A DNA stretch of 63,849 nt, filler included, from an uncultured Methanosarcinales archaeon (GTDB taxonomy: Archaea; Nanobdellota; Nanobdellia; Woesearchaeales; CAYXTQ01), in assembly GCA_964608065.1 (NCBI GenBank). It is 5 parts of 5 records of this genome, joined end to end, with 100 filler letters (N's around TTAATTAATTAA, not from the genome) between each part and the next. Parts side by side here need not be neighbours in the genome. Positions count along the whole stretch, not along the records: positions 1 to 14,513 come from CAZSMA010000034.1; 4 more parts are not named here. One strand, 5' to 3'. The notes under the pieces were generated by a model. That model saw only the letters and a program-made list of their open reading frames with translations. It ran no database searches and was not told the DNA's origin. The translations under genes were made by a program, and so were the position numbers. Numbering within the stretch: the first letter of the stretch is position 1; every line of letters begins with the position of its first letter. Below are positions 1 to 28,567 of this stretch, piece after piece.

Positions 1-121
1 CATCTATAGTCAATATATAATAACTTATATATAAATCTTTTTTTTTTTTTTTTAAAAAATTGCTAGAAAACTTTATATAATCTACTGAAATCTACTACTA
101 TAAAATTAAGAGGGGTTATTG

Positions 122-427
122 ATGTATAAAAAACAATATAAAATCACAGATGATGTTACAAAATTACTTTTTGAAGGTGGATGTGCTATTGTTAATAGAA
201 GTCATAATTATCCTAAAGAGAAAATAACTGTTAAAGTAGGTACCATCGAAATAGTTATAGAAAAAATAGCTGAAAAAAATACTAATCATTTAACTGGACA
301 AATTTTAAATATACCTCTTATTAAGGTAACTCCAAATCAAGAGACCTATAAAAAACACCCCTTTGTAATAGATTACTTAAGAAAAAAAGGCAATGAAGGG
401 GACTCAATTTTTTATTTTCCTATCTAA
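122..427 (+). CDS. hypothetical protein
   Basis: ~101-aa ORF with GAGGGG SD and upstream GAAAACTTTATATAA BRE/TATA; no recognisable motif. Confidence 0.5.
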   Translation: MYKKQYKITDDVTKLLFEGGCAIVNRSHNYPKEKITVKVGTIEIVIEKIAEKNTNHLTGQILNIPLIKVTPNQETYKKHPFVIDYLRKKGNEGDSIFYFPI

Positions 428-943
428 TCACTTAATCTTCAAACTATTAAACAACTCATCCTTATTCAATAAGGCTATTCCGGCTTTATTTCCAGTTATC
501 TCAACTTTCACTATCTTATCTGGCTTTTTCAAGTCAACATTAGGTTTATCTATAAATTCAGTTAATTTAATTATTAAATCTACTGTACTGCCACCTTTAC
601 TGAATTTCCTCTTATTCAAATCCATCATCCACTTATCTTTTTCCTTAATCTCTTTGTTGTATTTCTTCAAAGCACTCTGCATATCTTTGATATTAGATTT
701 AACCCATTTGTCTATTGGTGTCCAGTGGAATGTTTTCTCAAACAACTCTGCTAATTCATCTTTCTTCTTATTCAAATCCTTAACAGCTTTTTTACTATCT
801 TTAATTTTAATCTTAAACAAACCATCTATCTCTGAATCCAGAAATTTACCTTCCTGCTTTAACTCTTTAAGAACAGACTCAACTTCAGCTTTAGCGCTTG
901 CATAACAACTAGGTTCAAAGCTTACTAACAGATTAGGTTCCAT
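428..943 (-). CDS. stand-alone THUMP-domain RNA-binding protein
   Basis: C-terminal VDLKKPDKIVKVEI THUMP signature; AGGGGTGA SD. Confidence 0.8.
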   Translation of the reverse strand: MEPNLLVSFEPSCYASAKAEVESVLKELKQEGKFLDSEIDGLFKIKIKDSKKAVKDLNKKKDELAELFEKTFHWTPIDKWVKSNIKDMQSALKKYNKEIKEKDKWMMDLNKRKFSKGGSTVDLIIKLTEFIDKPNVDLKKPDKIVKVEITGNKAGIALLNKDELFNSLKIK

Positions 944-1070
944 ACTATCACCCCTTTAAATCAATAAGACTTTGAATTATAAATAGTTTTTGATTTTAAT
1001 TATTTATTTATGAGTAGTGACAAATAGAAAGATTTATATAGTATTTGATATTAACATATGTGATAGAACC

Positions 1071-1334
1071 ATGCTACCTAACTCGGAAGAAATTCTTTTG
1101 ATAAAGACAATGGCAGGAGATATGGATACAACACTTTTTAATCTTTTTTCAAAATATCAAAATAGCGAAACTCCAGAAAAAGAAAGACTAAAGAAAATCA
1201 TAGAACACAATCTTAGAACACTTGAAGAAACAGTTGGAATCCCTGTAGCTGATTTCTATAAAACATGTTTCAGTTTATTAGAAAATAAATATCCTAAACC
1301 TTATCAAACCACAACTCAAATGACTTCTCTTTAA
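1071..1334 (+). CDS. hypothetical protein
   Basis: ORF; TTTATATA box at ~1033 favours ATG 1071; overlaps the ileS 3' end. Confidence 0.4.
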   Translation: MLPNSEEILLIKTMAGDMDTTLFNLFSKYQNSETPEKERLKKIIEHNLRTLEETVGIPVADFYKTCFSLLENKYPKPYQTTTQMTSL

Positions 1335-4300
1335 CCAGTTCCTTGCTCTTAAACTCATGCCTTTTACTAGGATCTATCTGAGAAATCTTCAATTTACTGG
1401 CACCAACTTTCTCTTTTATCTGTTCACTAAATTTATTTAACATTTCAACTAATTCTTCATCAGTTTTAATAAACAAAACAATCTTATCCTTTTTCTGTAA
1501 CCCTGATTTCTTCCTTAAAGCCTGCACTCTTCTCATAACTTCTCTTGAATAACCTTCTGCCTCTAATTCAGGAGTTAACTCTTTATTCAAATAAATAAAT
1601 CCTTGTCTAAAAGAAACCTCTTCATAAGGTATTGGAACTTCTCTTTCAATTATCAAATGCTCTTTTACTATAGCAACTTTCTTACCATTAACATTTATCT
1701 CATATTTTCCATCTTTCTCTAAATGATTCAGCACAGTTTCAGCACTATCAGTGCTTAATCTTGCTATTATCTTAGGAGCTAGCTCTTTGAAATCAGGATT
1801 TATCTGCTTATAATCTGCTCTTACTTTTTGCTTTAATCCTGGCAATGTCTGCTGTACTTTAATTTCCTTAAAATTAGCCTGTACTTTCAATATATCTCCA
1901 AATTTTTCAATAGCTTTTACAGCTTTCTCATCTTTAGTGACTATAACAACTTCTTTCAAAGGCCATCTTACACCCATTTGAATTTTCTCCCTGCAAGCTA
2001 AGATTGATTGCAATGCTTGTTGTACAACACCCATATCCAGCTCTAATTCTTTATCTATAAACTTTTCATCATATTTAGGCCATTTATACAGATGAATACT
2101 TTCTTCTTTCAGCTTAAACTCTTTTCTTAAATCCTGATAAATATATTCAGTAATAAATGGAGCTATTGGAGCAAATAACTTTAATGTTTCAAACAAAACA
2201 TTATAGACAGTATACAAAACTTTTTTCCTGTCTTCTAATTTACCTAACGCTGTTTTCTCTCTAGTCAGCTGAATATAAGTTCTAGATAAATCTAAAAATA
2301 AGTCTTCTATAAGCCATGGAATCTCATCCATCTTATAATCATCAAATAATTTTGTAATTTTCCTCATACTGCTGTTTAGCTTGCTCAAAATATACTTTTC
2401 CTCAAGAGAAAATTTACTAATTTTAAGACTTGAAGGATTAACCTTTAATGTCTTAGCTAAATCTATCAAAAACTTATGTAAGTTCCATAATATCATCAAA
2501 TTTTTATGTTTTATCTTAAGATCATCAAAATTATAATTTATATCTAATCCTGGATTTGCTCCTCCAATCATATAATACCTTAAAGTATCAGCACCATACT
2601 TGTCAATAACTTCATAAGGAGAGATTATATTTCCTAAAGACTTTGACATCTTCCTCCCTTGAGAATCCTGTACAAAACCATGCATATAAACAGCCTTATA
2701 AGAAGGCTTTTGCATGCTAACCATACTAGCAACAAAAAGTAAATTAAACCAACCTCTGATCTGATCTTTTCCTTCTAATATAAAATCAGCAGGCCAGTAT
2801 TTTTTAAATAACTCTGTTTTCTGTGGATAATCCAAACAATTCCATGAAGTAGTTCCAGCATCAATCCATACATCCAAGATATCTGGAATTCTTTTCTTTA
2901 CACCACCGCACTTGCATGTTATTTCAACTTCATCAATATAAGGCCTGTGCAAATCATCTGGAACTTTATCAGCTAATTCTTTCAATTCTTTAATACTTCC
3001 AACAACCACATAATCTTTGCATTTATTACATCTCCAGATTGGAACAGCTGTTCCCCAATATCTCTGTCTTGTAATACCATTATCTCTTAGATTATCAAGC
3101 CATGAGTCAAACTGCCTGTTTCCAGCCCAGTCAGGCTGCCATTTTATTTTTTTATTAAGATTCCTCATCTTCTCTTTCATATCTTCAACTTTAAAGAACC
3201 ACTGCTTTGTTGTTCTGAATATGACAGGAGCCTTACATCTCCAGCAATGAGCATATTCATGCTCTACTTCTGTAGTTTCAATCAAAGCACCTGTTTCTTT
3301 TAAAGCTTCAACAAACTTTTGATCATCTTTCTTAGCAATTAACCCTGCAAATTTGCCCATATTCTCAGGAAAAACACCAAACTGGTCTAAGTTATTGAAA
3401 GGAGGAATCTTTTCCCTATGTCCAACTTCAAAGTCCTCAGGACCACAACCAGGAGCAGTATGCACTAATCCTGAACCTGCAGAAGTATCTACATATTCTT
3501 TAGATAAAACAACAGAATGTACTTTTGCTGAGTTTTTACTTAAATCATCATAAACTTGTTTTAATTCTTTATAGAAGGGGTGTTCATAATGAACTCCTTT
3601 TAATTTATCTCCTTTGAATTCTTCAATTATCTCTAATTTTTTATCTGCTACACCTTGTATCAAAGCTCCAGCTAAAGCTTTAGCTACTATCCAAACTTCA
3701 CTTCCAACTTTTGCTTTAACATAATCCAGATCAGGATTAACCATTACAGCTAAATTATAAGGGATAGTCCATGGAGTTGTTGTCCAGATTACCAAATATT
3801 CATTTTTTTCTTTTTTAACTTTAAATTTGACAAATATACTATTATCTTTAACATTTTTATACTCTAATTCATGTTTTGCAAGAGCTGTTGCACATTTCTG
3901 GCACCACTGCATTGATAATTTGCCTTCATACAATCTTTTGTTTTCATGTGCTTTCTTAACTAACCACCATTCACCTTCCATAAACTCATTTCTAATAGAT
4001 TGATAAGCATTTTTGAAATCCATCCATACTCCTAATCTTCTAAAGTCTTTGTTCATCATCTCCATGTTTTCAGTAGAAAACTTCTTGCATTCATTGATAA
4101 ACTTACTTACACCAAACTTAGGAACTTCATCTTTACTCTTTAATTTAAACTTAGCCTGAACTTTAAGTTCAGTTGGCAACCCATGCATATCATAACCAGC
4201 TCTGTCCCATACATCGAATCCGTTCATTCTCTTATATCTCATAACACAATCTTTTAGAGATTTGTTCCATGCTATTCCCAAATGAATCTTACCAGAAGTA

Positions 4301-4431
4301 TATGGAGGACCATCTAAAAAGTAAAAAGGCTTGCCTTTACCATTAGCTTTAGCGTATATTTTATTCTTTTCCCAAAATTCCAGCACAAAAGGTTCAATTT
4401 TGTGTGGTTCGTATTTAGTTAGTTTGTCCAT
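1294..4431 (-). CDS. ileS: isoleucine--tRNA ligase (archaeal/eukaryotic type)
   Basis: DGPPY..HLGI (HIGH), WTTTPWT editing motif, GKDQIRGWF, KMSKS. Confidence 0.97.
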   Translation of the reverse strand: MDKLTKYEPHKIEPFVLEFWEKNKIYAKANGKGKPFYFLDGPPYTSGKIHLGIAWNKSLKDCVMRYKRMNGFDVWDRAGYDMHGLPTELKVQAKFKLKSKDEVPKFGVSKFINECKKFSTENMEMMNKDFRRLGVWMDFKNAYQSIRNEFMEGEWWLVKKAHENKRLYEGKLSMQWCQKCATALAKHELEYKNVKDNSIFVKFKVKKEKNEYLVIWTTTPWTIPYNLAVMVNPDLDYVKAKVGSEVWIVAKALAGALIQGVADKKLEIIEEFKGDKLKGVHYEHPFYKELKQVYDDLSKNSAKVHSVVLSKEYVDTSAGSGLVHTAPGCGPEDFEVGHREKIPPFNNLDQFGVFPENMGKFAGLIAKKDDQKFVEALKETGALIETTEVEHEYAHCWRCKAPVIFRTTKQWFFKVEDMKEKMRNLNKKIKWQPDWAGNRQFDSWLDNLRDNGITRQRYWGTAVPIWRCNKCKDYVVVGSIKELKELADKVPDDLHRPYIDEVEITCKCGGVKKRIPDILDVWIDAGTTSWNCLDYPQKTELFKKYWPADFILEGKDQIRGWFNLLFVASMVSMQKPSYKAVYMHGFVQDSQGRKMSKSLGNIISPYEVIDKYGADTLRYYMIGGANPGLDINYNFDDLKIKHKNLMILWNLHKFLIDLAKTLKVNPSSLKISKFSLEEKYILSKLNSSMRKITKLFDDYKMDEIPWLIEDLFLDLSRTYIQLTREKTALGKLEDRKKVLYTVYNVLFETLKLFAPIAPFITEYIYQDLRKEFKLKEESIHLYKWPKYDEKFIDKELELDMGVVQQALQSILACREKIQMGVRWPLKEVVIVTKDEKAVKAIEKFGDILKVQANFKEIKVQQTLPGLKQKVRADYKQINPDFKELAPKIIARLSTDSAETVLNHLEKDGKYEINVNGKKVAIVKEHLIIEREVPIPYEEVSFRQGFIYLNKELTPELEAEGYSREVMRRVQALRKKSGLQKKDKIVLFIKTDEELVEMLNKFSEQIKEKVGASKLKISQIDPSKRHEFKSKELVKEKSFELWFDKV

Positions 4432-4594
4432 CTTAATCTTTTGTTTTGTTTTAATTTATATATATTTCTATCATATAAGTAATTTCTGGGTTTAGAACAT
4501 ATAACCCAGAGCTTAAGCTGTAATGATAGAAATTGCCATAATAATTGTATTTGGCATTTTATAGTTAGGATTATTGTTTTGTATTTAAAACTTA

Positions 4595-4744
4595 TTATTT
4601 CAGAACACACCCACACTCAAGACAAACATGGCCACCTTCTCTTTGATCGTACTTTGTGGTTACTCCATAATCTATCACAACCTCGCACTTAGGACACTTT
4701 TTCTCTAAGTTTTGCACATTATCAAAAAAATCTAGTTCTGGCAT
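4595..4744 (-). CDS. small CPxC..CxxCG zinc-ribbon microprotein (49 aa)
   Basis: Hand-translated MPELDFFDNVQNLEKKCPKCEVVIDYGVTTKYDQREGGHVCLECGCVLK*; GGGGA SD; own GAAAACTTTAAATA promoter; below ORF-track cutoff. Confidence 0.75.
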   Translation of the reverse strand: MPELDFFDNVQNLEKKCPKCEVVIDYGVTTKYDQREGGHVCLECGCVLK

Positions 4745-4780
4745 AACATCCCCCTATTACCCCACGAGACTTAGAAGTAT

Positions 4781-5155
4781 TTAAAGTTTTCGTAAGCTTA
4801 AGCCAGTGCTGTCTATTCCTGCTCTAAACTTAGCTTTCCTTGCAAATCCAAGAATTATTCCATCAACTAAGTTTCCTTTTAGTCTTTGGCTCACTTTATG
4901 TAGTGTAGTAAAATGAGGGATGGTTTCTAGTCCAATGTAATCTAATAAATAAGCATAGTCGGGCAATAACTCACAAAATCTTCTAAAGCCCATGCCATTA
5001 TGGTACTCACGTAGAGCAAGAAGTACAATATGTTGGTGTAATGTATAGGTCTTTTTAGAGAACTTATGGCCATATAGCCTTACTTGCTTTATTTTGATTG
5101 CTTTTAGTATATTTTTAGCAAATTTTATTAAGAATGTTTCTTTTTTCTTTTTCAT
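4781..5155 (-). pseudogene. IS5-like DDE transposase, truncated after the first catalytic Asp
   Basis: YTLHQHIVLL, PHFTTL and IDSTG motifs; only 124 aa. Confidence 0.8.
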
Positions 5156-5233
5156 GGTTGGGACACTCCAACCACCCCTCTTAGAGCCTTATGGCTCTTT
5201 GAGGGTTATAAATTTATAGGATTTCTACGGCCC
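4781..5233 (-). mobile_element. truncated IS5-family-like insertion sequence (left end plus 5' part of transposase)
   Basis: End GGGCCGTAGAAATCC resembles archaeal IS5-type termini; transposase fragment inside; no right end seen. Confidence 0.7.
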
Positions 5234-5242
5234 CGTAACTAC

Positions 5243-7693
5243 TCAAAAGAACTTCCCCAACTTCTCCTGGCCTTTTTTCTCAGATAAATCAGATTTATGA
5301 TAACCAAGTACACTAAAGATTGTTGCTACAGCAGGAATTATCTGGTTATTAACATAATAAACAGGATCATAATCATTTTGTTTGACTTCATCAGGCAATT
5401 TAGCTCTCTCCCTTATCAACCCTTTGCCTTTTGTTATAACATACTTCATAACAGTGCCTGCACTTATCTTTAAACCCCTATCCCTTAATCTTTTGGCAAC
5501 TGCAACATGAGGCCCTATAGAATCATAATCACTAATCTCTTTTTGCAGCTGTGTACGTATGATAACTTTATCTAATTCAATTTTATGGTTTCTTAAATCA
5601 TCTATTGTCTTTTTAACATAATTAAATGCTTTCTCTTTATTATTCTCTTTTAAAATAATATTAAGCACCTTTTCCTGAACTTCTTTAGCTACAATGCTCC
5701 AATTCCTTCTTACAGATTCAAATCCTCTAATCTTAATATTTCCATTTTCAGAAAGTAAAGCATACTTTTTCTTAGCTCCATAACCGGTTTCCTTAGCTGA
5801 AACAAATATTCCAGCAGGATAACTTCCTTCATACTCTAATTCCATCAATCCAGGCAGTTCTACATTAACAGATTCTGCAAACTTTTTAACATCCTTCTCT
5901 TTATTATTACCTACTAAAAGAAAAACACTGTCAGTGTCGGAGTACAAAACTTTAAATCCAGCTTCCTTTGCCTTATCAATAACTTTATGGATATAATATC
6001 TTCCCCAGGATGTAACTGATTTAGCACATTCAAGAGAATACCATCTTGCAGCAAAAAATCCTAGATAACCATAGAATGAATTTGCCATTAATTTCAGTGA
6101 TTGTTCACGGGCATGCAAAAAAATACTTGCTTCTTTTTTCCTACTCATCTCCTTAATCCTCATCCTTCTTGTAATCAATTCTTCAATTATAGATGGAATA
6201 AACCCTTTCTTTTTTTTGCAGAACCAGTACTTCTCATTATCCTCTATTGGAGGTTTTTCAGCCTTATCTCCACAACACTTGCAATTCAGAGTTTCCAGGG
6301 AAATATTATGAGAACTGATTATAGTTGGATACAAGCTCCTGTAATCAAAGATAACTATCTTTTTATAAAAACCAGGTGTCGGTTCATAAACAAACGCTCC
6401 TTTGTAAGTCTGCGTCCTTCTCTGCATTATATCATCATGGCCTGGCCTGTTCAATATCATCTCATTAAAATTTTTAGTCTGCTTTATCAAATACCATTCT
6501 ACTAACTGCGAAAAACCCATTCTATTGATATCATATATTGGCAATCCAACTATTTTTACTAACTCAATTAGATTAGGCAACAATTTTTCAGCCAGCCTAA
6601 ATGTCAGATAAGAATCATGCAGATTATACTTGCAGAATTCTTCTAATTTTTCTGTGTTTTTATCCCATGCTTCAGACAATTCATCTAAATCCACATCTAT
6701 CTTTTTCTCTTTTAATAGTTCTTCTGCAACAGCATTAAGACTATAAGTACTGGTTTCCAGGCTAGATTTCATTATTCTTATTATATATTTAAAAACATCC
6801 AGGTGGTTTATACTCCTTATTTTCGCTACTTCAGACTTTTTATTGACCTTTACCTCAGAATAATCCCAACCAATATCTAATTTTATCTTATATTTTTTAG
6901 CTCTTTCAGATAAATATGGAAAATCAAAACCATCTGAAAAATAACCTGTGATAATATCTGGCTTATAATGTTCTATTGTTTCTTTAAATTTCTGTATTAA
7001 TTCTGATTCCCCTTCTACAAACTCAATATAATCCTCTTTTGTCTTAAACCTTTTCCAGGTTATTACTTTTTTGAAATTTGTTCCATAAAAACTAAGCATG
7101 ATTATAGGATACTTCTCTGGCTCAATTGTTTTTCCTACTGGATTGTATGTTTCTATATCAAAAGCCAGTATTCTTGGCTTTGTTAATGTATCATCACTGA
7201 ACTGTTTTACAGAACTAGCTTTCAGGACAGGCACTTTGCTTTTGATATTGATAAATTCACCTTCTGCTTCAACTAAAGTCATAGGTGTTATTCCTTTATC
7301 TACTAAATATCTTCTTGAAAAAACAATATCATATTCATGAATAGATTCAATAATCTCCCATTCTTTTATAGTATCTCTTATTATAGGGACATCATAAGGC
7401 AGTTTTGTATAAACTTTTATAGCCACTACTTCCTTTCCAAGATACTTCTTGGTTATCATTTCTGTTTTAGTTACTTCTGCTGTAGTTTCATTTACCTCTA
7501 CTTTTATTTTCTCTAACTTCTCTTTTACACTTTTGCCTTTTTTAGGTATAACAATAAAATATGGTTCAAAAGAATCATCCATAACAGTAATCTGCTTTCC
7601 AGCTATTGTCTTTCCAAATAAGTAGATTGCTGCTCTATCATCTACTAATCTGTATGTAATATCCAAAGGAAAAAACTGTATTTTTTCTGGCAT
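5243..7693 (-). CDS. polB: family B DNA polymerase (archaeal PolB3 type)
   Basis: Exo DIET; polymerase DYRSLYP, KLMANSFYGY, YSDTDS; C-terminal PIP box QEKLGKFF. Confidence 0.96.
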   Translation of the reverse strand: MPEKIQFFPLDITYRLVDDRAAIYLFGKTIAGKQITVMDDSFEPYFIVIPKKGKSVKEKLEKIKVEVNETTAEVTKTEMITKKYLGKEVVAIKVYTKLPYDVPIIRDTIKEWEIIESIHEYDIVFSRRYLVDKGITPMTLVEAEGEFINIKSKVPVLKASSVKQFSDDTLTKPRILAFDIETYNPVGKTIEPEKYPIIMLSFYGTNFKKVITWKRFKTKEDYIEFVEGESELIQKFKETIEHYKPDIITGYFSDGFDFPYLSERAKKYKIKLDIGWDYSEVKVNKKSEVAKIRSINHLDVFKYIIRIMKSSLETSTYSLNAVAEELLKEKKIDVDLDELSEAWDKNTEKLEEFCKYNLHDSYLTFRLAEKLLPNLIELVKIVGLPIYDINRMGFSQLVEWYLIKQTKNFNEMILNRPGHDDIMQRRTQTYKGAFVYEPTPGFYKKIVIFDYRSLYPTIISSHNISLETLNCKCCGDKAEKPPIEDNEKYWFCKKKKGFIPSIIEELITRRMRIKEMSRKKEASIFLHAREQSLKLMANSFYGYLGFFAARWYSLECAKSVTSWGRYYIHKVIDKAKEAGFKVLYSDTDSVFLLVGNNKEKDVKKFAESVNVELPGLMELEYEGSYPAGIFVSAKETGYGAKKKYALLSENGNIKIRGFESVRRNWSIVAKEVQEKVLNIILKENNKEKAFNYVKKTIDDLRNHKIELDKVIIRTQLQKEISDYDSIGPHVAVAKRLRDRGLKISAGTVMKYVITKGKGLIRERAKLPDEVKQNDYDPVYYVNNQIIPAVATIFSVLGYHKSDLSEKKGQEKLGKFF

Positions 7694-7733
7694 ATTATAA
7701 CATTAGAAGCAAATTGTTATTTAAAGGTTGCTG

Positions 7734-9410
7734 TTACATCCTATCAGGAGCTTCTATCCCTAACAGATTTAAACCATTCTTAAGAACTTGCTTTACACAC
7801 ATAATCAAGCTTAATCTAGCTTCTCTAACATCTTTCTCAGCTTTTAAAACAGGCAATTTTACATAGAATGAGTTAAATGTTTGGCTTAATTCAATTAAAT
7901 AAGTAGCTATCAACGAAGGTTTATAATTATTTGCAGCTTCATCAACTTTATCAGGAAATTTGGATAACAAGCTAATCAGCTTCAATTCTAATTCATCTTT
8001 CAACAGACTATAATCAACTTTAACAGGAACTTTACCTTTACTTAATATAGAACTTATTCTTGTATGAGCATACTGAGCATAAGGCCCTGTTTCTCCTTCA
8101 AACTTAATGCTTTCCTCAGGATTATACATCATATCTTTCATTGGATCGTGCTTTAAGATATAGAACTTTATAGCTCCTAAACCTATCTGCTCAGATCTTT
8201 TATCAATTTCCTTCTGTGATAAACCTTTATGCCTCTTCAAAATCTCTTTCTTAGCCAGCTCAATCATCTCATCCATTAAATCATCAGCATCTACAACCTT
8301 TCCCTCACGACTTTTCATCTTACCTTCTGGCAAATTCACCATACCATAAGCCAGATGAAAGCAATTCTTAGCAAAAGAAAACTTTAACATCTTAAACAAT
8401 TCAAACAGCACTTTAAAATGATATATCTGCTCATTACCAACAACATAAATCATCTTATCCATCTTATAGTCTTTATATCTGATTCCTGCTAAAGCCATAT
8501 CTTGTGTAATATAAACAGCAGTTCCATTAGCTCTTATCAGAACCTTTTTACCTAATTTCTCATTTTCTAAATCAACAACAATACTTCCATCATCTTTTTC
8601 AAAAATCCCTTTCTTTAGACCATCCATAACTATTTTTTTTCCTTTAAGATAAGTATCGCTTTCATAATAGCTTTTTTCTATATTTCTTCCAAACCTTTTA
8701 TATGTCTCAAACATACCATCCACAGCCCATTTGTTCATTTTCTTGCTTAATTCTCTGGCTTCTTTATCACCATTCTCCCATTTTTCCAATAACTCCTGTG
8801 CTTCTTGCTCTAATTTTGGGTTTTCTCTGACTTTCTGAGCAAACAACACATAATAATCTCCAACAAAATGATCAGATTTTTTGTTTGGTTTTTTACCCTT
8901 ACCCCATTTCTTATAAGCAAGCATTGATTTGCAGATATGGATTCCTCTATCATTGATAATATCCACATCTTTGACATTACATCCTATAAATTTATAGATA
9001 TTTGAAAGACTTATTCCTAAAGACATGTTCCTTAAATGACCAAGATGTAAGGGTTTGTTTGTATTAGGTCCTGGTGATTCAACTAATACTGTTTTCTTTT
9101 CCTTTTGGCTTCCATACTTATCTTTTTGTTTAAGAACATCTTTAATAACATCATCAGCTAACTTTCCTTTATCACAGAAAAAATTCAGATAAGGCCCCTT
9201 AACCTCAACTTTATTTATCAAATTGCTTAATTTAATTTTCTTAGCTAAATCCTGCGCTATTTCATTAGGATTCTTTTTCAATGTTTTAGCTAAAACAAAG
9301 CATGGAAAAGCATAGTCTCCAAATTCTTGCTTAGGTATTTCTAAGTTAATTTCCTTTAATTTTGTTTCTTTCTTCAGAATTTTTATTATTTCTTTTTCAA
9401 AATCATTCAT
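7734..9410 (-). CDS. argS: arginine--tRNA ligase
   Basis: PNTNKPLHLGH, KMKSREG, GETGPYAQYAHTRI, DALR-type C-terminus. Confidence 0.97.
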   Translation of the reverse strand: MNDFEKEIIKILKKETKLKEINLEIPKQEFGDYAFPCFVLAKTLKKNPNEIAQDLAKKIKLSNLINKVEVKGPYLNFFCDKGKLADDVIKDVLKQKDKYGSQKEKKTVLVESPGPNTNKPLHLGHLRNMSLGISLSNIYKFIGCNVKDVDIINDRGIHICKSMLAYKKWGKGKKPNKKSDHFVGDYYVLFAQKVRENPKLEQEAQELLEKWENGDKEARELSKKMNKWAVDGMFETYKRFGRNIEKSYYESDTYLKGKKIVMDGLKKGIFEKDDGSIVVDLENEKLGKKVLIRANGTAVYITQDMALAGIRYKDYKMDKMIYVVGNEQIYHFKVLFELFKMLKFSFAKNCFHLAYGMVNLPEGKMKSREGKVVDADDLMDEMIELAKKEILKRHKGLSQKEIDKRSEQIGLGAIKFYILKHDPMKDMMYNPEESIKFEGETGPYAQYAHTRISSILSKGKVPVKVDYSLLKDELELKLISLLSKFPDKVDEAANNYKPSLIATYLIELSQTFNSFYVKLPVLKAEKDVREARLSLIMCVKQVLKNGLNLLGIEAPDRM

Positions 9411-10111
9411 AATTCTTCACTTTCTTTTTTATCTTTATTCAAAATTTCAATCTTAGTTTCTCCACCTAAAAAACTTTTAACTAAATCAGCTAACTCTTTT
9501 AATATTTTTTGCAGTTCTTTCTCTGTTACAGGCTCTAACCCTTCAACATACAATATTACATCTTTACTATCCTCTGTAATCCTTGTTTTATAGCATTCTC
9601 TCCAATTCCATCTTCTGCATAATACTTCAATATCATCTTTGTAAATAACTTCATTAGGATTAGGATTACTACTTTCCTGTTTTCCAATAGGAATGAATTT
9701 CTCATCACCTTTTGCAAATGTTAATTGAATATCTCCAATAACCTCATTCAAATCATCAGCACCCATTGGAACAAGATGTTTTAAACTCAAATAATTGTAC
9801 AAATCAACTAATTTATTTATTTTTGGCAATGTTTCTGCTTTCAAAATCCTTCTTAGCAGAGATTCAACAGAATTATGGTGTTTTTTAGGTTTTGCTCCAA
9901 AAGCAAGATAAGTAGCTCTCCATGGTGCAATTAACTTATGATTTGCAATATCTTCAGGAGTGAAATTACTTTTTATTAAATCCTCAATCTCTATCAATAA
10001 TTTGTAAATCTCTTTATCTTCACCTTTATTGTTAATACCTTTAGCAATAACTACTCCAACACTCAACTTTGGAAATTGTTCAAAGATTTTATTGTCTATT
10101 TTAAGTTTCAT
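9407..10111 (-). CDS. stand-alone B3/B4 (PheRS-beta editing-like) domain protein
   Basis: SVESLLRR, INKLVDLYNYLSL, GADDL, CRRWNWRE; 4-nt overlap with argS start. Confidence 0.88.
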   Translation of the reverse strand: MKLKIDNKIFEQFPKLSVGVVIAKGINNKGEDKEIYKLLIEIEDLIKSNFTPEDIANHKLIAPWRATYLAFGAKPKKHHNSVESLLRRILKAETLPKINKLVDLYNYLSLKHLVPMGADDLNEVIGDIQLTFAKGDEKFIPIGKQESSNPNPNEVIYKDDIEVLCRRWNWRECYKTRITEDSKDVILYVEGLEPVTEKELQKILKELADLVKSFLGGETKIEILNKDKKESEEL

Positions 10112-10190
10112 ATAAATAATAAGAAATAAAGATATTTATTAAGGTTGCGGTTTTCTAGATTACTAATTCTGTAAGGAATTATAAATATTT

Positions 10191-10475
10191 TCACTGAATT
10201 AGATGGTTTACTAAATAATCACTATATATCCCATGTACTATACCTCTTTCAACAAAACCATCATGATAACCCCCGTAGTACTTAATTGGTATTTTGTCGT
10301 TTCTATTATTCTCAACACCATCAGTTATTTGTTCAATGACTATTGTTTCTACTTCTCCAATCTTTGTTTTAACTGCTCTAACATCTCCTATTTCTAGTTC
10401 ATGAGTCTGTTTTCCAGCATTCGAAAGAGCTTTAATCAACAACGGCATTATTGATATTTGACTTTCTTTAGGCAT
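10191..10475 (-). CDS. hypothetical protein
   Basis: ORF; GAGGGGGG SD before ATG 10475. Confidence 0.55.
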   Translation of the reverse strand: MPKESQISIMPLLIKALSNAGKQTHELEIGDVRAVKTKIGEVETIVIEQITDGVENNRNDKIPIKYYGGYHDGFVERGIVHGIYSDYLVNHLIQ

Positions 10476-10606
10476 ATTTATCCCCCCTCTGATTTGCAAC
10501 GAAAAGAACTAGCATTTGCAATTCTTTCCAGAGTATTTTACATCTCTGAAGATAAAGAAATAGTTAAGGTTATATAAATATATTTTGTAATTAGAAAATA
10601 TAGTTT

Positions 10607-11764
10607 TCATTGTAGTTTTTTAGAAACAATCTTATAAGCATCTCTAAAAGAAATACCTTTCTTAACTAATTCATAAGCTTTATTGACTGAATAAATCTCT
10701 TTAGTGCATGCTTTCTTACAATTTTCTTTATTAACCTTTAGATTAGCTAAAACTAGATTCATTATTTTAACAGAATCTATTGTAATCTTAAAACATTTCA
10801 TCAAAGGCTCTTTAGTCAGCTGATAATCACGATTAAATCCAGATTGTAAATTCTTAATAATATTCATTACTTGAAAAACAAAGGATTCAACTACAGCAGA
10901 TTTTGCTCTAACTAATTCTAAAACATCTGGATTATGTTTATGAGGCATTATACTGCTTCCAGTGCAGAATTCATCTGGCAATGTAAAATATCCAAATTCA
11001 CCCATACTAAAAATAATTAAATCATTTGCTAACTTTCCTAAATCCTGCATAATCTGGCTTAAAGCAAATAATATTATACTTTCAAACTTTCCTCTGCTAT
11101 TCTGACAATAAAGGCTATTCTTCTGTATTTTACTAAATCCTAATAATTTTGTAGTTAATGCTTTGTCAATCTTTATATTAACACCATAACCAGCTGCGCT
11201 TCCTAATGGATTCTGATCATTAAGCTTATAAGCAGTATCCAATAACTTCAAATCATCTTCCAAAGACTCTTTAAAAGCCTCAAAATAGTCTCCAACAGTA
11301 TAAGGCATTGCTTTTCTTGAATGAGTATAACCTGGCATTTCAACACCTTTATACTTAACACTAATCTTTGTTAGTGTTTCAATTAAACTTAACACTAAAT
11401 TTTCCACTTCATTTAATTTATCCTTGCTATACAATCTTATAGCTGTTAACACCTGGTCATTTCTAGAACGAAAAGTATGAATCTTTTTCCCAACCTTACC
11501 TAAATAATTCTCAATAGCAGTATGACAATCCTCTTCTGATAAATTTATTTTGAATTTTTTATTTTCATTTATTTTTTTTAATTTATTCTCTATTTTATTA
11601 AATTCAGCTTTGCTTAAAATTCCAATCTTCACAAGCATTTTTGCATGCGCAATAGAAGCAATACAGTCATATTTCAATAAAGCTTTATCTATTAAATAGT
11701 CATTTCCAACTGTAAATTTCTCAATTTCCTTATTTAGTGTTTTTTTCTTTTGCCATAGTTTCAT
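10607..11764 (-). CDS. argH: argininosuccinate lyase
   Basis: True start MKLWQ; RSRNDQ, MPGYTH, GSSIMPHKHNPD signature. Confidence 0.94.
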   Translation of the reverse strand: MKLWQKKKTLNKEIEKFTVGNDYLIDKALLKYDCIASIAHAKMLVKIGILSKAEFNKIENKLKKINENKKFKINLSEEDCHTAIENYLGKVGKKIHTFRSRNDQVLTAIRLYSKDKLNEVENLVLSLIETLTKISVKYKGVEMPGYTHSRKAMPYTVGDYFEAFKESLEDDLKLLDTAYKLNDQNPLGSAAGYGVNIKIDKALTTKLLGFSKIQKNSLYCQNSRGKFESIILFALSQIMQDLGKLANDLIIFSMGEFGYFTLPDEFCTGSSIMPHKHNPDVLELVRAKSAVVESFVFQVMNIIKNLQSGFNRDYQLTKEPLMKCFKITIDSVKIMNLVLANLKVNKENCKKACTKEIYSVNKAYELVKKGISFRDAYKIVSKKLQ

Positions 11765-12953
11765 TCTGAACACCAATTTGTTGTTGCATTCCATACAGTT
11801 TGATAAAAGATTCAGCATCTTTTCCTGTCCATGAAGCACTTTGCGCATATGAAGCAATTTTCTCATTAATCAAGCTAAAAGGGCTTTCAACACCATAAAA
11901 CATAGCATTTTGTCCTTCTAACTTAACTTTAACCTTGCCTGTAACCTTTTCCTGTGTTGAATCAATAAACTTATCAATATCTTTTACAACAGGATCATAA
12001 TATTTACCCATATAAACTAAATCATTCCATTTTGCTTCTAATTGTTCTTTCACAACCATCTGTGATTTAGTCAAAACTAGTCTTTCAAGTGCTTTGTGAG
12101 CATTGATAATTAATATAATACCTGATGCTTCAAAAGCCTGTATTCCTTTTATCCCTAGTGTTTCATTCTCAATATAAAGCCCACGACCATATCCAAAAGA
12201 ACCTACTACTTTGTTCAGTTTCTCTAATATTTTTAATCCATCTAACTTTTCTCCATTCAAAGATACTGGAACCCCATTAACAAATTCTAATTCAATATAT
12301 ATTGAACCTTTATTCTTAATTTTTGATAATACCCAAACATCTTCTTCAGGTTCTTTATTTTCATCTATTTCTGAGCCTGAAATAGTTCTTCCAAACATTG
12401 AATCAGCTATTGTATATTTTTTTACTTTTTCATCTACTTTAAACCCTTTTTTCTCTAGATATTCAATCTCATCTTTACGCTTTATCATCACTTCTCTTAT
12501 AGGGGCTATAATCTTCATATGAGGAGCAAAACTCATAATACTTAAATCAATTCTTACTTGATCATTTCCAGTTCCAGTACAACCATGAGCAACTATCTTT
12601 GTTCCTTCTTTCTCAGCTATCTCTGCAGCATACTTTGCAAACATATACCTATCAGAACACATATGAGGATAAACTCCTTCATACAAAGCATTTGTCTTGA
12701 TTATTTTAGTTCCAATTAAATTAAAAAAAATCTTATTAGCATCAACAGTATAATGCTTTATAGCTCCTAGCTCTTTTGACTTATTCTCAATCTTAATCTT
12801 CTCTTCCTCACTTAATCCTCCTACATCAACTGTAAGTGTAACTACATCATATCCTTGTTCTTTTAAGTAAACAGTACAAAAAGATGTATCTAAACCTCCT
12901 GAAAATAATAAAATCACTTTCTCTTTTGGTTTAGTTTTATCTTTATGGTGCAT
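11730..12953 (-). CDS. argG: argininosuccinate synthase
   Basis: FSGGLDTS PP-loop, AHGCTGTGNDQVR. Confidence 0.95.
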   Translation of the reverse strand: MHHKDKTKPKEKVILLFSGGLDTSFCTVYLKEQGYDVVTLTVDVGGLSEEEKIKIENKSKELGAIKHYTVDANKIFFNLIGTKIIKTNALYEGVYPHMCSDRYMFAKYAAEIAEKEGTKIVAHGCTGTGNDQVRIDLSIMSFAPHMKIIAPIREVMIKRKDEIEYLEKKGFKVDEKVKKYTIADSMFGRTISGSEIDENKEPEEDVWVLSKIKNKGSIYIELEFVNGVPVSLNGEKLDGLKILEKLNKVVGSFGYGRGLYIENETLGIKGIQAFEASGIILIINAHKALERLVLTKSQMVVKEQLEAKWNDLVYMGKYYDPVVKDIDKFIDSTQEKVTGKVKVKLEGQNAMFYGVESPFSLINEKIASYAQSASWTGKDAESFIKLYGMQQQIGVQNETMAKEKNTK

Positions 12954-13236
12954 TTTTCATAGGATGATACTCTTTTAACAACAAATACAGTGGTTGTTCT
13001 CCAGATGGTGATTTGTCTATTAGATGATGCTCTGTTTTTCCTTTATACTCTGACTTTACATGAACACTAACTCCGCCTGTAGTATTACTAATTGCATATA
13101 CCTTTCCTATATGGGAAGGATATACTACTATTGCCGGTACACTGTTTAACTTTTCTAAGTTGTCTTCTTTCTTCACAGGAAAATCTGGATGCGTCCCATC
13201 TTCCTTAAAGCCTTTAATGATTTGGTTTATCTTCAT
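12943..13236 (-). CDS. hypothetical protein in the arg operon
   Basis: GGAGGT SD; overlaps the argG start. Confidence 0.6.
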   Translation of the reverse strand: MKINQIIKGFKEDGTHPDFPVKKEDNLEKLNSVPAIVVYPSHIGKVYAISNTTGGVSVHVKSEYKGKTEHHLIDKSPSGEQPLYLLLKEYHPMKNAP

Positions 13237-13245
13237 TTTCTTTCT

Positions 13246-13371
13246 TTAACCTCCAACTAATTTTATGACATCCTCTTTGGATATCAACTCAACTACCTTA
13301 TTATTCCCTAAAGGCGCCATACACATTGCCTTTATTTTCTTTATTTCATGTACAAGTTTTTGTTTTTTCAT
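13246..13371 (-). CDS. small hypothetical protein (41 aa) in the arg operon
   Basis: MKKQKLVHEIKKIKAMCMAPLGNNKVVELISKEDVIKLVGG*; GGAGGT SD; not in ORF track. Confidence 0.55.
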   Translation of the reverse strand: MKKQKLVHEIKKIKAMCMAPLGNNKVVELISKEDVIKLVGG

Positions 13372-13428
13372 ATTAATCAACCTCCAAATTATATATTTAA
13401 TAAATAAAAATAACAATGAAAGAATTCT

Positions 13429-13491
13429 TCACCTTCTTCTAAATTTATAACTATCAAAATCAACTGCTTCGATTTTATTTGAATTAATCAT
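13429..13491 (-). promoter_or_regulatory. putative arginine-sensing leader peptide MINSNKIEAVDFDSYKFRRR*
   Basis: 20-codon uORF ending AGA AGA AGG TGA, just downstream of a TTATAAATA box, followed by a T-rich tract, at the head of the argG-argH unit. Confidence 0.6.
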
Positions 13492-13611
13492 TTTTAATCA
13501 ATTATCTATGAATCATAACTTATTTATAACATTATTGACCTACTCAAAACAAAAATAAACAAAGATGTCCGAAACAAAACATTTATATACTAACAATAAT
13601 TTCTAACTACT

Positions 13612-14241
13612 ATGAACATTACAAAAGAAACTGAAAAATATATTCAGGAGCATCCAAGCATTAAAGAATCTGTGAAAAAAAGTTTAATTAATTACTCAAA
13701 GCTATCAAGACTTATTCTAAAAGAGCTTCAAATATCAAACAAAAACTTTGATGCAGTATTAATCGCATGTAGAAGGTATTCAGATAAACTGAAAATAGAG
13801 AAAAAATTTGAAAAACAGATAATAGATATGTTAAAAAAAACAAAATTAGAGATTAAAAACAAAATTATTGTAGTTATTTTAGAAAAAGATATTTATTATG
13901 AACATTTAAAAGATATTGAGAAAGAAGTTAAAAGAAAAAATGGTTTATTTAGGGCAATTGAAGGAGCAAATGCTATTACATTGATAACAAATGAAGAGTT
14001 TTTAGATAAGATTAAGGATATTTTTAAACATAAAATACTAAAATTAAACAACGATTTAGCAGAAATCACATTAAAAAGTTCAAAAGAAATTGAAAATACT
14101 CCTGGTGTAGTAGCTTACTTATATTCCTTATTTGGAGAAAACAATATTAACATATTGGAAACAATGAGCTGCTGGACTGATACAATCTTCATAATAAAAG
14201 AGCAGGATATAGCTAAAGTAATGCAGATTTTAAACTTCTAA
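13612..14241 (+). CDS. ACT-domain protein, putative amino-acid-responsive regulator
   Basis: N-terminal LINYSKLSRLI helical motif; C-terminal ACT (TPGVVAYLYSLFGENNINI, SCWTDT); divergent from the arg operon. Confidence 0.75.
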   Translation: MNITKETEKYIQEHPSIKESVKKSLINYSKLSRLILKELQISNKNFDAVLIACRRYSDKLKIEKKFEKQIIDMLKKTKLEIKNKIIVVILEKDIYYEHLKDIEKEVKRKNGLFRAIEGANAITLITNEEFLDKIKDIFKHKILKLNNDLAEITLKSSKEIENTPGVVAYLYSLFGENNINILETMSCWTDTIFIIKEQDIAKVMQILNF

Positions 14242-14411
14242 TCTTCTTCTTTCTCTTCTTTTTCCTTGCTTTCCTTCTCTTTTTCTTTTTTCTCTTCCTC
14301 TGATGCTTCTTCATATCCCTTCATAAAACCAGCTTCTTCTGGACTCATCTCTCCGTCATCTACTGCTTCATTCCTTTTTTCTTCATCATATACATCATCA
14401 GCATCTACCAT
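14238..14411 (-). CDS. small acidic protein (57 aa)
   Basis: MVDADDVYDEEKRNEAVDDGEMSPEEAGFMKGYEEASEEEKKEKE...; AGGTGA SD; not in ORF track. Confidence 0.7.
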   Translation of the reverse strand: MVDADDVYDEEKRNEAVDDGEMSPEEAGFMKGYEEASEEEKKEKEKESKEKEEKEED

Positions 14412-14513
14412 ATTCATTCACCTATATAGGGATTAAGTAATTTATTTATATAGTTTTCTAAATTTTCGGGTTTGTCCCAAATCTAAAGAATTATAAACCC
14501 CTACTGCTAAGAA

Positions 14514-28426: not shown

Positions 28427-28567
28427 GGCGGTATAGCTTAATCTGGTTAGGGCGCAACAATTTTAATTGCGAGGCTCATATGTTTGAGCGATGAGGCTTA
28501 CGCCAATGATTAACTCAAAACCTACTGGGTTACGTTGAGATTCTGGGTTCAAATCCCGGTACCGCCA
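28427..28567 (+). tRNA. tRNA with CAT anticodon (probably elongator Met), two introns (30/31: 28459-28473; 37/38: 28481-28531)
   Basis: Acceptor GGCGGTA/TACCGCC-A; spliced arm CAACG-CTCATAA-CGTTG; T-arm CTGGG-TTCAAAT-CCCGG; BHB motifs. No initiator features; Ile2 not formally excluded. Confidence 0.85.

Follow-up and report, generated by a model that had tools for sequence, protein, structure and literature searches.

The locus described here raises the question whether an archaeon can read its arginine supply from a ribosome that translates a short open reading frame (ORF) ahead of its arginine biosynthetic genes. It was found in a stretch of 63,849 nt of the assembly GCA_964608065.1, referred to below as the window, in which several contigs are joined by N runs; the locus is situated on the first of these (1-14513). 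On the minus strand of this contig an ORF of 20 codons, the leader ORF, ends in three tandem arginine codons and precedes an operon that contains argG and argH. The organisms concerned, this one and its relatives, are known from metagenome assemblies only. It is proposed that the leader is a ribosome-mediated arginine sensor, and for this sensor part alone the sequences suggest a probability of about three in four. The whole chain, in which the leader-ORF sensor would have termination at a downstream U-tract as its output, is put forward more tentatively.

Reading of the minus strand confirmed the TATA box, the 20-codon upstream ORF (uORF; 13491-13429) and the arginine triplet that had been reported in a preliminary description of this DNA, and the T-rich tract and the GGAGGT sequence said to follow the uORF are both present (Table 1). 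The encoded peptide, MINSNKIEAVDFDSYKFRRR, has no arginine outside the terminal triplet, and no Shine-Dalgarno sequence precedes the ORF. The distance between the 3' end of the TATA box and the leader ATG is 29 nt. Because the promoters of such leaders are positioned 20-34 nt upstream, the leader ORF at 13491 is predicted to be leaderless or nearly so, with transcription starting at about 13499-13491. The GGAGGT sequence further downstream is taken as a Shine-Dalgarno sequence; the 16S rRNA of relatives ends in ...GGATCACCTCCT. The genome measures 1.40 Mb with 29% G+C. In a crude gene set 3.5% of codons specify arginine, with AGA and AGG as the major ones, so the codons of the leader are ordinary. 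The ending is not: a genome-wide count over six frames gave 14,914 ATG-initiated ORFs of 8-40 codons, 37 of which end in RR and two in RRR, this leader being one of the two. The feature exceeds chance expectation.

Table 1. Features of the arginine locus, with positions counted along the window
Feature	Position	Strand	Remarks
DUF7523 and tandem-ACT protein gene	13612..14241	+	Pfam ACT_7 and DUF7523; divergent from the arg operon
Operator-like block	13536..13590		common to the divergent promoters; half-sites TGTTT/TGTTC ... GGACA/GGTCA
Archaeal-type promoter	13521..13540	-	GGTCAATAA element and TATA box TTATAAATA (13529-13521)
Leader ORF, 20 codons, MINSNKIEAVDFDSYKFRRR*	13429..13491	-	ATG at 13491; stop TGA at 13431-13429
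Three tandem Arg codons, AGA AGA AGG	13432..13440	-	T on the 5' side, stop TGA on the 3' side; proposed sensing site
Post-stop box, cTTTCATTG	13414..13422	-	TTTCATTG at 13421-13414; holds CAU, the complement of a start codon
U-rich tract, TTTTTATTTATT	13399..13410	-	candidate archaeal oligo-U terminator or pause site
Shine-Dalgarno sequence, GGAGGT	13380..13385	-	serves the first structural ORF, with ATG at 13371
41-codon ORF, ending ...LVGG	13246..13371	-	first ORF past the leader; without Pfam or NCBIfam match
97-codon ORF	12943..13236	-	overlaps the start of argG by 11 nt; without Pfam or NCBIfam match
argG, argininosuccinate synthase	11730..12953	-	Pfam PF00764 (5e-47) and PF20979 (4e-48)
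argH, argininosuccinate lyase	10607..11764	-	Pfam Lyase_1 (8e-50); start set from homologues beginning MKLWQK, span approximate

Recurrence of the leader was studied in relatives, whose genomes and loci are denoted here by G and L numbers. ArgG is present in 88 of 401 sampled genomes of the same order. A set of 22 argG-upstream regions was composed of the 2.5 kb upstream of the 20 best ArgG matches, of this locus and of L002. The first ORF past the conserved promoter ends in RRR, RR or RRx in nine of these; in 12 others the promoter is followed directly by the first gene, or the region is out of range. The candidate 'MNLTRKYLHMKQRR' of L036 (G169) was dropped as an out-of-frame ORF within the start of argG. 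The alignment of the divergently encoded ACT-domain protein served as another anchor and yielded 305 related loci in a species-level genome collection, the best 80 of which were kept. These are labelled Candidatus Woesearchaeota, Nanoarchaeota or Nanoarchaeia, some of them otherwise, and the Woesearchaeota and Nanoarchaeota labels match the DPANN assignment of the preliminary description. Six of the best 80 loci (one duplicating L019) have an RR-ending uORF of at least 12 codons, and 60 further ACT-divergent flanks from the 401-genome sample gave two leaders, one of them again a duplicate. After removal of duplicates the total is 15 distinct leaders from Woesearchaeota-type genomes of several families. 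One of them, L139, is included only as a variant, having a Shine-Dalgarno-like sequence in place of a TATA box at leaderless distance. ArgG in the leader-bearing genomes is 30-51% identical to that of this locus. Arg-run uORFs at orthologous loci, on which the preliminary description had staked its proposal, are therefore present ahead of arg operons in distant relatives, and lend the proposal strong backing from comparison.

A search of the 401 genomes with a gene-blind pattern gave 33 matches, compared with 18 for the reversed control. The 33 comprise six known loci, 25 that were fetched and two in unpublished genomes, which were left out; no conclusion drawn here depends on genomes so flagged. 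Two of the 25 are true leaders adjoining arg genes, one was not re-found and one (L160) has only an ATG-uORF; this last, which ends in RRF and has neither promoter nor arg context, was excluded from the count. The remaining 21 have no ATG-uORF and typically lie within long open frames. All eight matches that combine an ATG-uORF with a promoter precede arg-related genes. A first order-wide pattern that included the T-run had been discarded: it was noisy, because CAATGAA is common as a gene start on the other strand, and it missed this leader itself. A pattern scan of metagenomes (at least 117 stretches, at least 80 loci) gave at least six that passed a crude uORF filter, none of these six with the promoter or an arg context, and a family-level search around G020 (eight genomes) revealed no new leader. 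Nor was such a uORF found at the OTC gene of G000, which lies at another site. The same-genus genome G001 (91% complete) gave no ArgG match; there the operator and promoter are kept and the RRR ORF and the arg genes are absent. At positions 215-340 of its oriented locus L296 the near-identical operator and promoter are followed by a short ORF led by a Shine-Dalgarno sequence, and about 200 nt of extra AT-rich DNA lie between operator/promoter and the ACT gene.

The 15 leaders occur in an arginine context. Operons containing argG follow 12 of them, often behind a protein of about 100 amino acids without Pfam match or behind OTC. One leader (L147/L150) precedes an operon for a radical-SAM protein (414 aa), a class I/II aminotransferase (330 aa) and arginyl-tRNA synthetase (ArgRS), at 311-2776 of the oriented L150 (G042), a genome 86% complete in which ArgG was not found. 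Two further leaders precede a protein of about 285 aa without assigned identity. That these ORFs arose by chance, or encode a functional micropeptide unrelated to regulation, is in our estimation very improbable. Short ORFs are indeed plentiful in AT-rich intergenic DNA, and a purine-rich AGR run is also Shine-Dalgarno-like; this explanation would have to accommodate the rarity of RRR endings counted above, a recurrence at the same place in 15 lineages that is restricted to arg-related operons, and a peptide with no conservation beyond RR.

The anatomy of the leader is conserved. By a regular expression, 11 of the 15 leaders have a TATA-like 8-mer whose 3' end is 20-30 nt away from the ATG, a twelfth (L344) has one at 34 nt, and in two further leaders a TATA box was recognized by eye. 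The arrangement of [AG]G[AT]C[AG]nTAA followed by TATA is conserved among the leaders, and the TATA-to-ATG distances fall into two classes. With a spacing of 20-26 nt transcription would start at the ATG; with 27-30 nt the 5' untranslated region (UTR) would measure roughly 4-9 nt, often reading UGAnUnAAA. This spacing would put the start of transcription on the uORF ATG or slightly ahead of it, and so argues against a start downstream of the uORF.

The leader ORFs have 12-23 codons and their sequence is unconserved except for Arg-Arg, which occupies codons -3/-2 in 14 leaders and -2/-1 in the fifteenth. Codon -1 is Arg in eight leaders and otherwise L, Q, C or S. The Arg codons vary synonymously (AGA, AGG, CGG, CGA, CGT and CGC), and G381, whose genome has 52% G+C, uses CGA CGT. 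CGG, a rare codon, is often used: it is the last sense codon in L002, L023, L037 and L098 and the second Arg codon in L344. Two further regularities lie outside the need for arginine. The stop codon is TAG in 13 of the 15 leaders, compared with 143 of 1123 stops (13%) in this genome, whose own leader is the only one with TGA; and a T stands just before the Arg pair in 14 of 15, compared with 42% NNT among the codons for F, L, V, S, I and T, making an out-of-frame TAG. By our own arithmetic both biases are far beyond binomial expectation, for genomes that are related and not independent.

Behind the stop codon, TTCATTG is found within 16 nt in nine of the 15 leaders, in each of which the box starts 4-7 nt past the stop, and TCATT is found in 11. 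The box and the T-run are enriched behind the leader stops, although the 7-mer is common, with 434 copies in the genome; among the 80 ACT-anchored flanks its forward motif occurs in nine, in four of them directly after an RR-uORF. A run of at least five T (T5-8) lies within 45 nt after the stop in ten of the 15. The 16S genes of G217, G316 and G020 (L174, L175, L176) are directly followed by T8, T5 and T9 runs, consistent with a role of oligo-T in termination or processing within the order.

The biases in stop codon and pre-Arg base suggest a rival, namely that the block T-AGR-AGR-NNN-TAG-N4-7-TTCATTG is a nucleic-acid signal, either a second operator for the ACT regulator or the site of an RNA-binding attenuation protein or termination factor, and that protein alone exerts control. 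Conservation beyond coding need, with the T in 14 and TAG in 13 of 15 leaders, speaks for this, as do the conserved adjoining gene for an amino-acid-binding regulator, the palindromic operators upstream and the resemblance of the box part ATTGTT(C) to an operator half-site. The block nonetheless shares, in 15 of 15 leaders, the reading frame of an ATG located where the transcript is predicted to begin, without in-frame stop and in ORFs of differing lengths. Its Arg positions accept CGN codons, as in G381, no matching second half-site occurs at the operator spacing, and the box keeps a fixed distance from the stop codon, not from the promoter. Control of this kind is considered unlikely. Less likely still in our weighing is an arrest peptide like TnaC or the fungal arginine attenuator peptide, in which nascent ...RR(R) together with free arginine would stall the ribosome at the stop and lower downstream expression. 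The position of the Arg residues at the extreme C-terminus directly at the stop, the strong preference for a single stop codon (TAG) and the hydrophobic or small residue ahead of the Arg pair would suit it. Known arrest peptides are, however, conserved in sequence and length, and the leader peptides are not: the conserved peptide needed for an arrest of this type was not found among the 15 leaders, which share only RR near the C-terminus. Moreover, seven leaders have a non-Arg residue between RR and the stop, and tandem cognate codons typify sensors of tRNA charging.

The favoured reading is that of a sensor of tRNA charging. Leader-peptide attenuation is a textbook result of coupled transcription and translation in bacteria; archaea couple the two processes as well but terminate at oligo-U tracts and with FttA/aCPSF1. 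Translation, stalling, helix formation and termination are steps that we infer from the leader anatomy, as follows. The 20-codon ORF would be a translated leader peptide gene that reports the supply of charged tRNA-Arg to the operon behind it (the 41-codon ORF, the 97-codon ORF, argG and argH). Transcription would start at or a few bases before the leader ATG, and the first ribosome, trailing the polymerase, would meet two or three Arg codons right before the stop. With Arg-tRNA plentiful, this ribosome would terminate and leave, and the post-stop box UUCAUUG would be naked and could pair with the 5' end of the transcript (AAAAUGA...) to form a long hairpin just ahead of the U-tract, where the polymerase would terminate or be terminated. 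With Arg-tRNA scarce, the ribosome would be parked on the Arg codons with its leading edge at the stop codon, abutting the box; it would keep the closing helix from forming, or a factor from binding to the box, and read-through into argG-argH would follow. From footprint geometry, protection of the mRNA should extend to about the stop codon when the first or second Arg codon occupies the A site of the ribosome. The box would lie just outside such a stalled ribosome and partly inside a terminating one.

What pairing partner the box might have was studied by folding. A recurring pairing connects the post-stop segment with the 5' end of the transcript, the AUG pairing with the CAU of the box and the flanking A's with U's. 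Such pairing would explain why a CAU-holding box is conserved at a fixed distance from the stop. Cognate duplexes of 5' end and post-stop segment have a mean of -7.58 kcal versus -6.56 for non-cognate ones (permutation p = 0.044, 13 leaders), and in the minimum-energy folds eight of 13 leaders have their uORF AUG paired to the post-stop region, versus 3.7 expected from tail shuffles. Lineage-specific complements are seen in L100, L147, L031 and L019, and in seven leaders the T-run begins 0-7 nt past the 3' arm of the helix, as read by hand from duplex and T-run coordinates. Support for the closing helix is modest.

Several other roles for the box or its surroundings were tried and rejected. 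Pairing with 16S rRNA was dropped, the 16S genes of three relatives containing no CAATGAA (the G000 assembly is without 16S). An antisense small ORF starting from CAATGAA reads MKEFFTFF* here but MN* in G020 (sequences read by eye). The TTG of the box is in frame with the next gene as a start codon only here and in G217, with immediate stops elsewhere. Bypass by a +1 frameshift fails in G020, where the +1 frame closes right past the box. As a second promoter or operator the box is accompanied by no TATA and no second half-site at constant spacing, and this role is retained solely within the low-probability rival described above. The local stem GTGAAG/TTTCAT of the preliminary description is present, as a weak GGUGAAG/UUUCAUU stem, in the minimum-energy fold of this leader; it is specific to this leader and absent from the consensus. 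Rfam 15 gave no match at gathering threshold near the locus and none at E <= 1 in 13330-13620.

A number of observations weigh against the sensor with its termination output. RNAalifold predicted no local consensus structure, with 0 consensus pairs for 12 aligned leaders. A scan for bacterial-type terminators found 0 and no G+C-rich terminator stem; between them, these two analyses revealed no mutually exclusive terminator and antiterminator hairpins. The support for the closing helix is marginal, as A/U-rich ends often pair by chance; the fold of this leader itself prefers the local stem and lacks the closing helix; and whole-leader folding energies are ordinary (z -2.06 to +1.38). An inner helix joining the Arg codons to the inside of the uORF was rejected (permutation p = 0.10, mean z = -0.36). 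The model also requires either that the ribosome be released fast or that the polymerase pause, since the box would be covered by a ribosome standing on the stop codon. The model leaves the TAG and pre-Arg T biases unexplained, and nucleotide-level recognition could be involved. Most arg loci that adjoin an ACT gene are without any leader, and the leader-bearing genomes are related, so they are not independent samples. Finally, five of the 15 leaders have no run of at least five T, three leaders offer no space for a terminator, and in G161 and G381 only about 32-47 nt separate the leader from the next gene. Termination therefore cannot be the universal output.

These last points make a post-transcriptional output of the same sensor a serious rival, although we regard it as somewhat less likely than termination: under arginine limitation the parked ribosome would alter the folding and thereby expose the start of the first gene, or would shield the 5' end or a cleavage site from RNases and so prolong the life of the operon mRNA. 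It would suit the leaders without T-run and those with very short spacers. In several leaders, furthermore, the downstream gene starts with AUGAA, the complement of the UUCAU of the box, and bacterial precedents are reported in mycobacterial poly-Cys ORFs, which act on translation (10.1101/834739), and Salmonella orf34, which acts through RNase G-dependent stability (PMC6386406). Yet duplexes between the post-stop segment and the downstream ribosome-binding site or start were no better than shuffles (14 leaders; fraction 0.14-0.88, at least 0.49 in nine of 14), the T5-8 run in ten leaders would be left unexplained, and no RNase site is known. Premature termination at the U-tract stays the favoured candidate output. 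The claim of the preliminary description that stalling on Arg codons controls termination is supported in so far as Arg-ended leaders recur ahead of arg operons; its termination part is unsupported as it was written.

The first gene past the leader is not argG, as had been supposed, but the 41-codon ORF, followed by the 97-codon ORF. No homologue of the 41-codon ORF was found by tblastn in the fetched relative loci; its last codons make a GGAGGT 13 nt ahead of the next start. By eye only, the 97-codon ORF (C-terminus ...MKNAP) ends in a similar way to a 105-aa ORF at the second arg locus of G316. Downstream of argH follow a 102-codon ORF, a B3/4-domain protein and ArgRS. As gaps of 107 and 79 nt with TATA-like sequences occur there, the leader is taken to serve the unit up to argH. 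The stop of the stand-alone B3/4-domain gene (9407-10111, minus strand) overlaps the start of the ArgRS gene (7734-9410, minus strand), and the pair apparently has its own TATA-like promoter and no Shine-Dalgarno sequence; the B3/4 domain otherwise occurs in the PheRS beta subunit. Elsewhere in the window an Rfam tRNA match of 43.9 bits extends over 141 nt (28427-28567, plus strand), a length that suggests an intron-containing tRNA gene; ARAGORN found no tRNA anywhere in the window. In five genomes the first gene past the leader encodes a protein of about 90-115 aa with an HExxH-like motif (MKFIKIQ...VEKIW...THEFLH...KWNKKLEKQYLEDE) and without Pfam or NCBIfam match; it is located in L002 at 2902-3213 (reverse strand) and also in L019, L023, L031, L037 and L350. 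In L029 (G186), an arg locus that has no leader ORF, CCUCCUCUCC in the 5' UTR (1200-1250, oriented) can pair with AAGGAGGGG, the ribosome-binding site of OTC, which may represent a different kind of riboregulator.

The gene divergent from the arg operon points to a second layer of control. According to its AlphaFold2 model (pLDDT 89.7), the DUF7523-ACT protein has an N-terminal four-helix domain and a C-terminal half like the regulatory domains of aspartokinase. By hand count, 43 of the best 80 related loci have a forward-strand match to ArgG, ArgH, OTC or ArgRS on the divergent side within 2.5 kb. The protein is probably an arginine-responsive regulator and a candidate for a new archaeal one. 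Its candidate binding site is the operator-like block, whose last box (TGTTT-N6-GGTCA) directly adjoins the TATA box. Near-identical copies of this block occur in G103 (L019) and in the same-genus G001 (L296). Tandem palindromes of the TTTGTTC-N6-GAACA type, reminiscent of paired ARG boxes, lie between the two genes, and related ones are found at the same place in L002, L023, L030, L037, L021 and L344.

Taken as a whole, we are inclined to regard the element as the first archaeal leader-peptide amino-acid attenuator: a leaderless ORF that parks the ribosome at an 'anti-start' box and a U-tract, layered on an undescribed ACT regulator with ARG-box-like tandem palindromes, patchy in its spread across at least nine families within a single DPANN order, and controlling argG-argH, OTC and once an ArgRS operon. 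If this is true, genome-reduced DPANN archaea regulate a salvage-type arginine pathway in two layers, by a DNA-binding regulator and by a ribosome sensor. The leader, sequence-defined and about 110 nt long, would be a compact test object for ribosome control of archaeal termination, for leaderless initiation in regulation and for the partner of the box, and its layout would provide a search pattern for archaeal leaders of other amino acids.

How does this leader compare with known systems? The preliminary description knew of no arginine attenuator in DPANN archaea, and a literature search, with subscription journals outside its coverage, found no archaeal leader-peptide attenuator at all; new here would be a leader of the ribosome-mediated type in the Archaea, a domain without a described case in the literature searched. 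Archaeal uORFs have been observed by ribosome profiling but are reported without characterisation (PMC7261190, PMC11456600).

Like the bacterial attenuators (trpL, hisL, leuL, pheL, thrL, ilv), the leader has a short co-oriented ORF ahead of an amino-acid biosynthetic operon, tandem cognate codons near the end of the ORF that are conserved while the peptide drifts, and a U-rich tract before the first structural gene, and ribosome position would set the read-through. It differs in its archaeal host, in its ORF, predicted to be leaderless or nearly so and without Shine-Dalgarno sequence, and in that the regulatory codons stand directly at the stop and are followed by a conserved primary-sequence box; neither the 1:2/2:3/3:4 hairpins nor the G+C-rich terminator stem of the bacterial systems was found. 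We know of no enterobacterial arginine attenuator, because the arg genes there are under ArgR. The fungal arginine attenuator peptide (arg-2/CPA1 uORF) is likewise encoded by a uORF ahead of an arginine-pathway gene and shows arginine-dependent ribosome behaviour at the uORF stop codon, but that peptide is conserved in sequence, contains no Arg run and responds to free arginine, whereas RR alone is conserved here.

In the Salmonella speF leader orf34, two consecutive Arg codons in an upstream ORF are reported to sense arginine via ribosome pausing (Ben-Zvi et al. 2019, PMC6386406), as would be the case here. That ORF has 34 codons, lies in a long bacterial 5' leader and regulates ornithine decarboxylase, not arginine synthesis, and its outputs are given as Rho termination, unmasking of the ribosome-binding site and RNase G-dependent decay. 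The polycysteine leaderless short ORFs of the mycobacterial 'Cys ribulon' are reported to act on translation, a duplex sequestering the downstream ribosome-binding site (Canestrari et al., bioRxiv 10.1101/834739). They share with the present leaders the leaderless first cistron of a cognate-pathway operon, which is a prediction here, the tandem cognate codons, the occurrence at several operons per clade and the proposal that a stalled ribosome blocks an RNA duplex. Amino acid and domain of life differ; the duplex with the ribosome-binding site is theirs and is unsupported here, where it was no better than shuffles and where a U-tract is common.

In E. coli pyrBI and pyrE a single terminator structure is disrupted by a ribosome that translates a leader ORF close behind the polymerase. 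This resembles the proposal made here, but what these systems sense is UTP, through pausing of the polymerase, and not an amino acid, and they have a local, G+C-rich hairpin.

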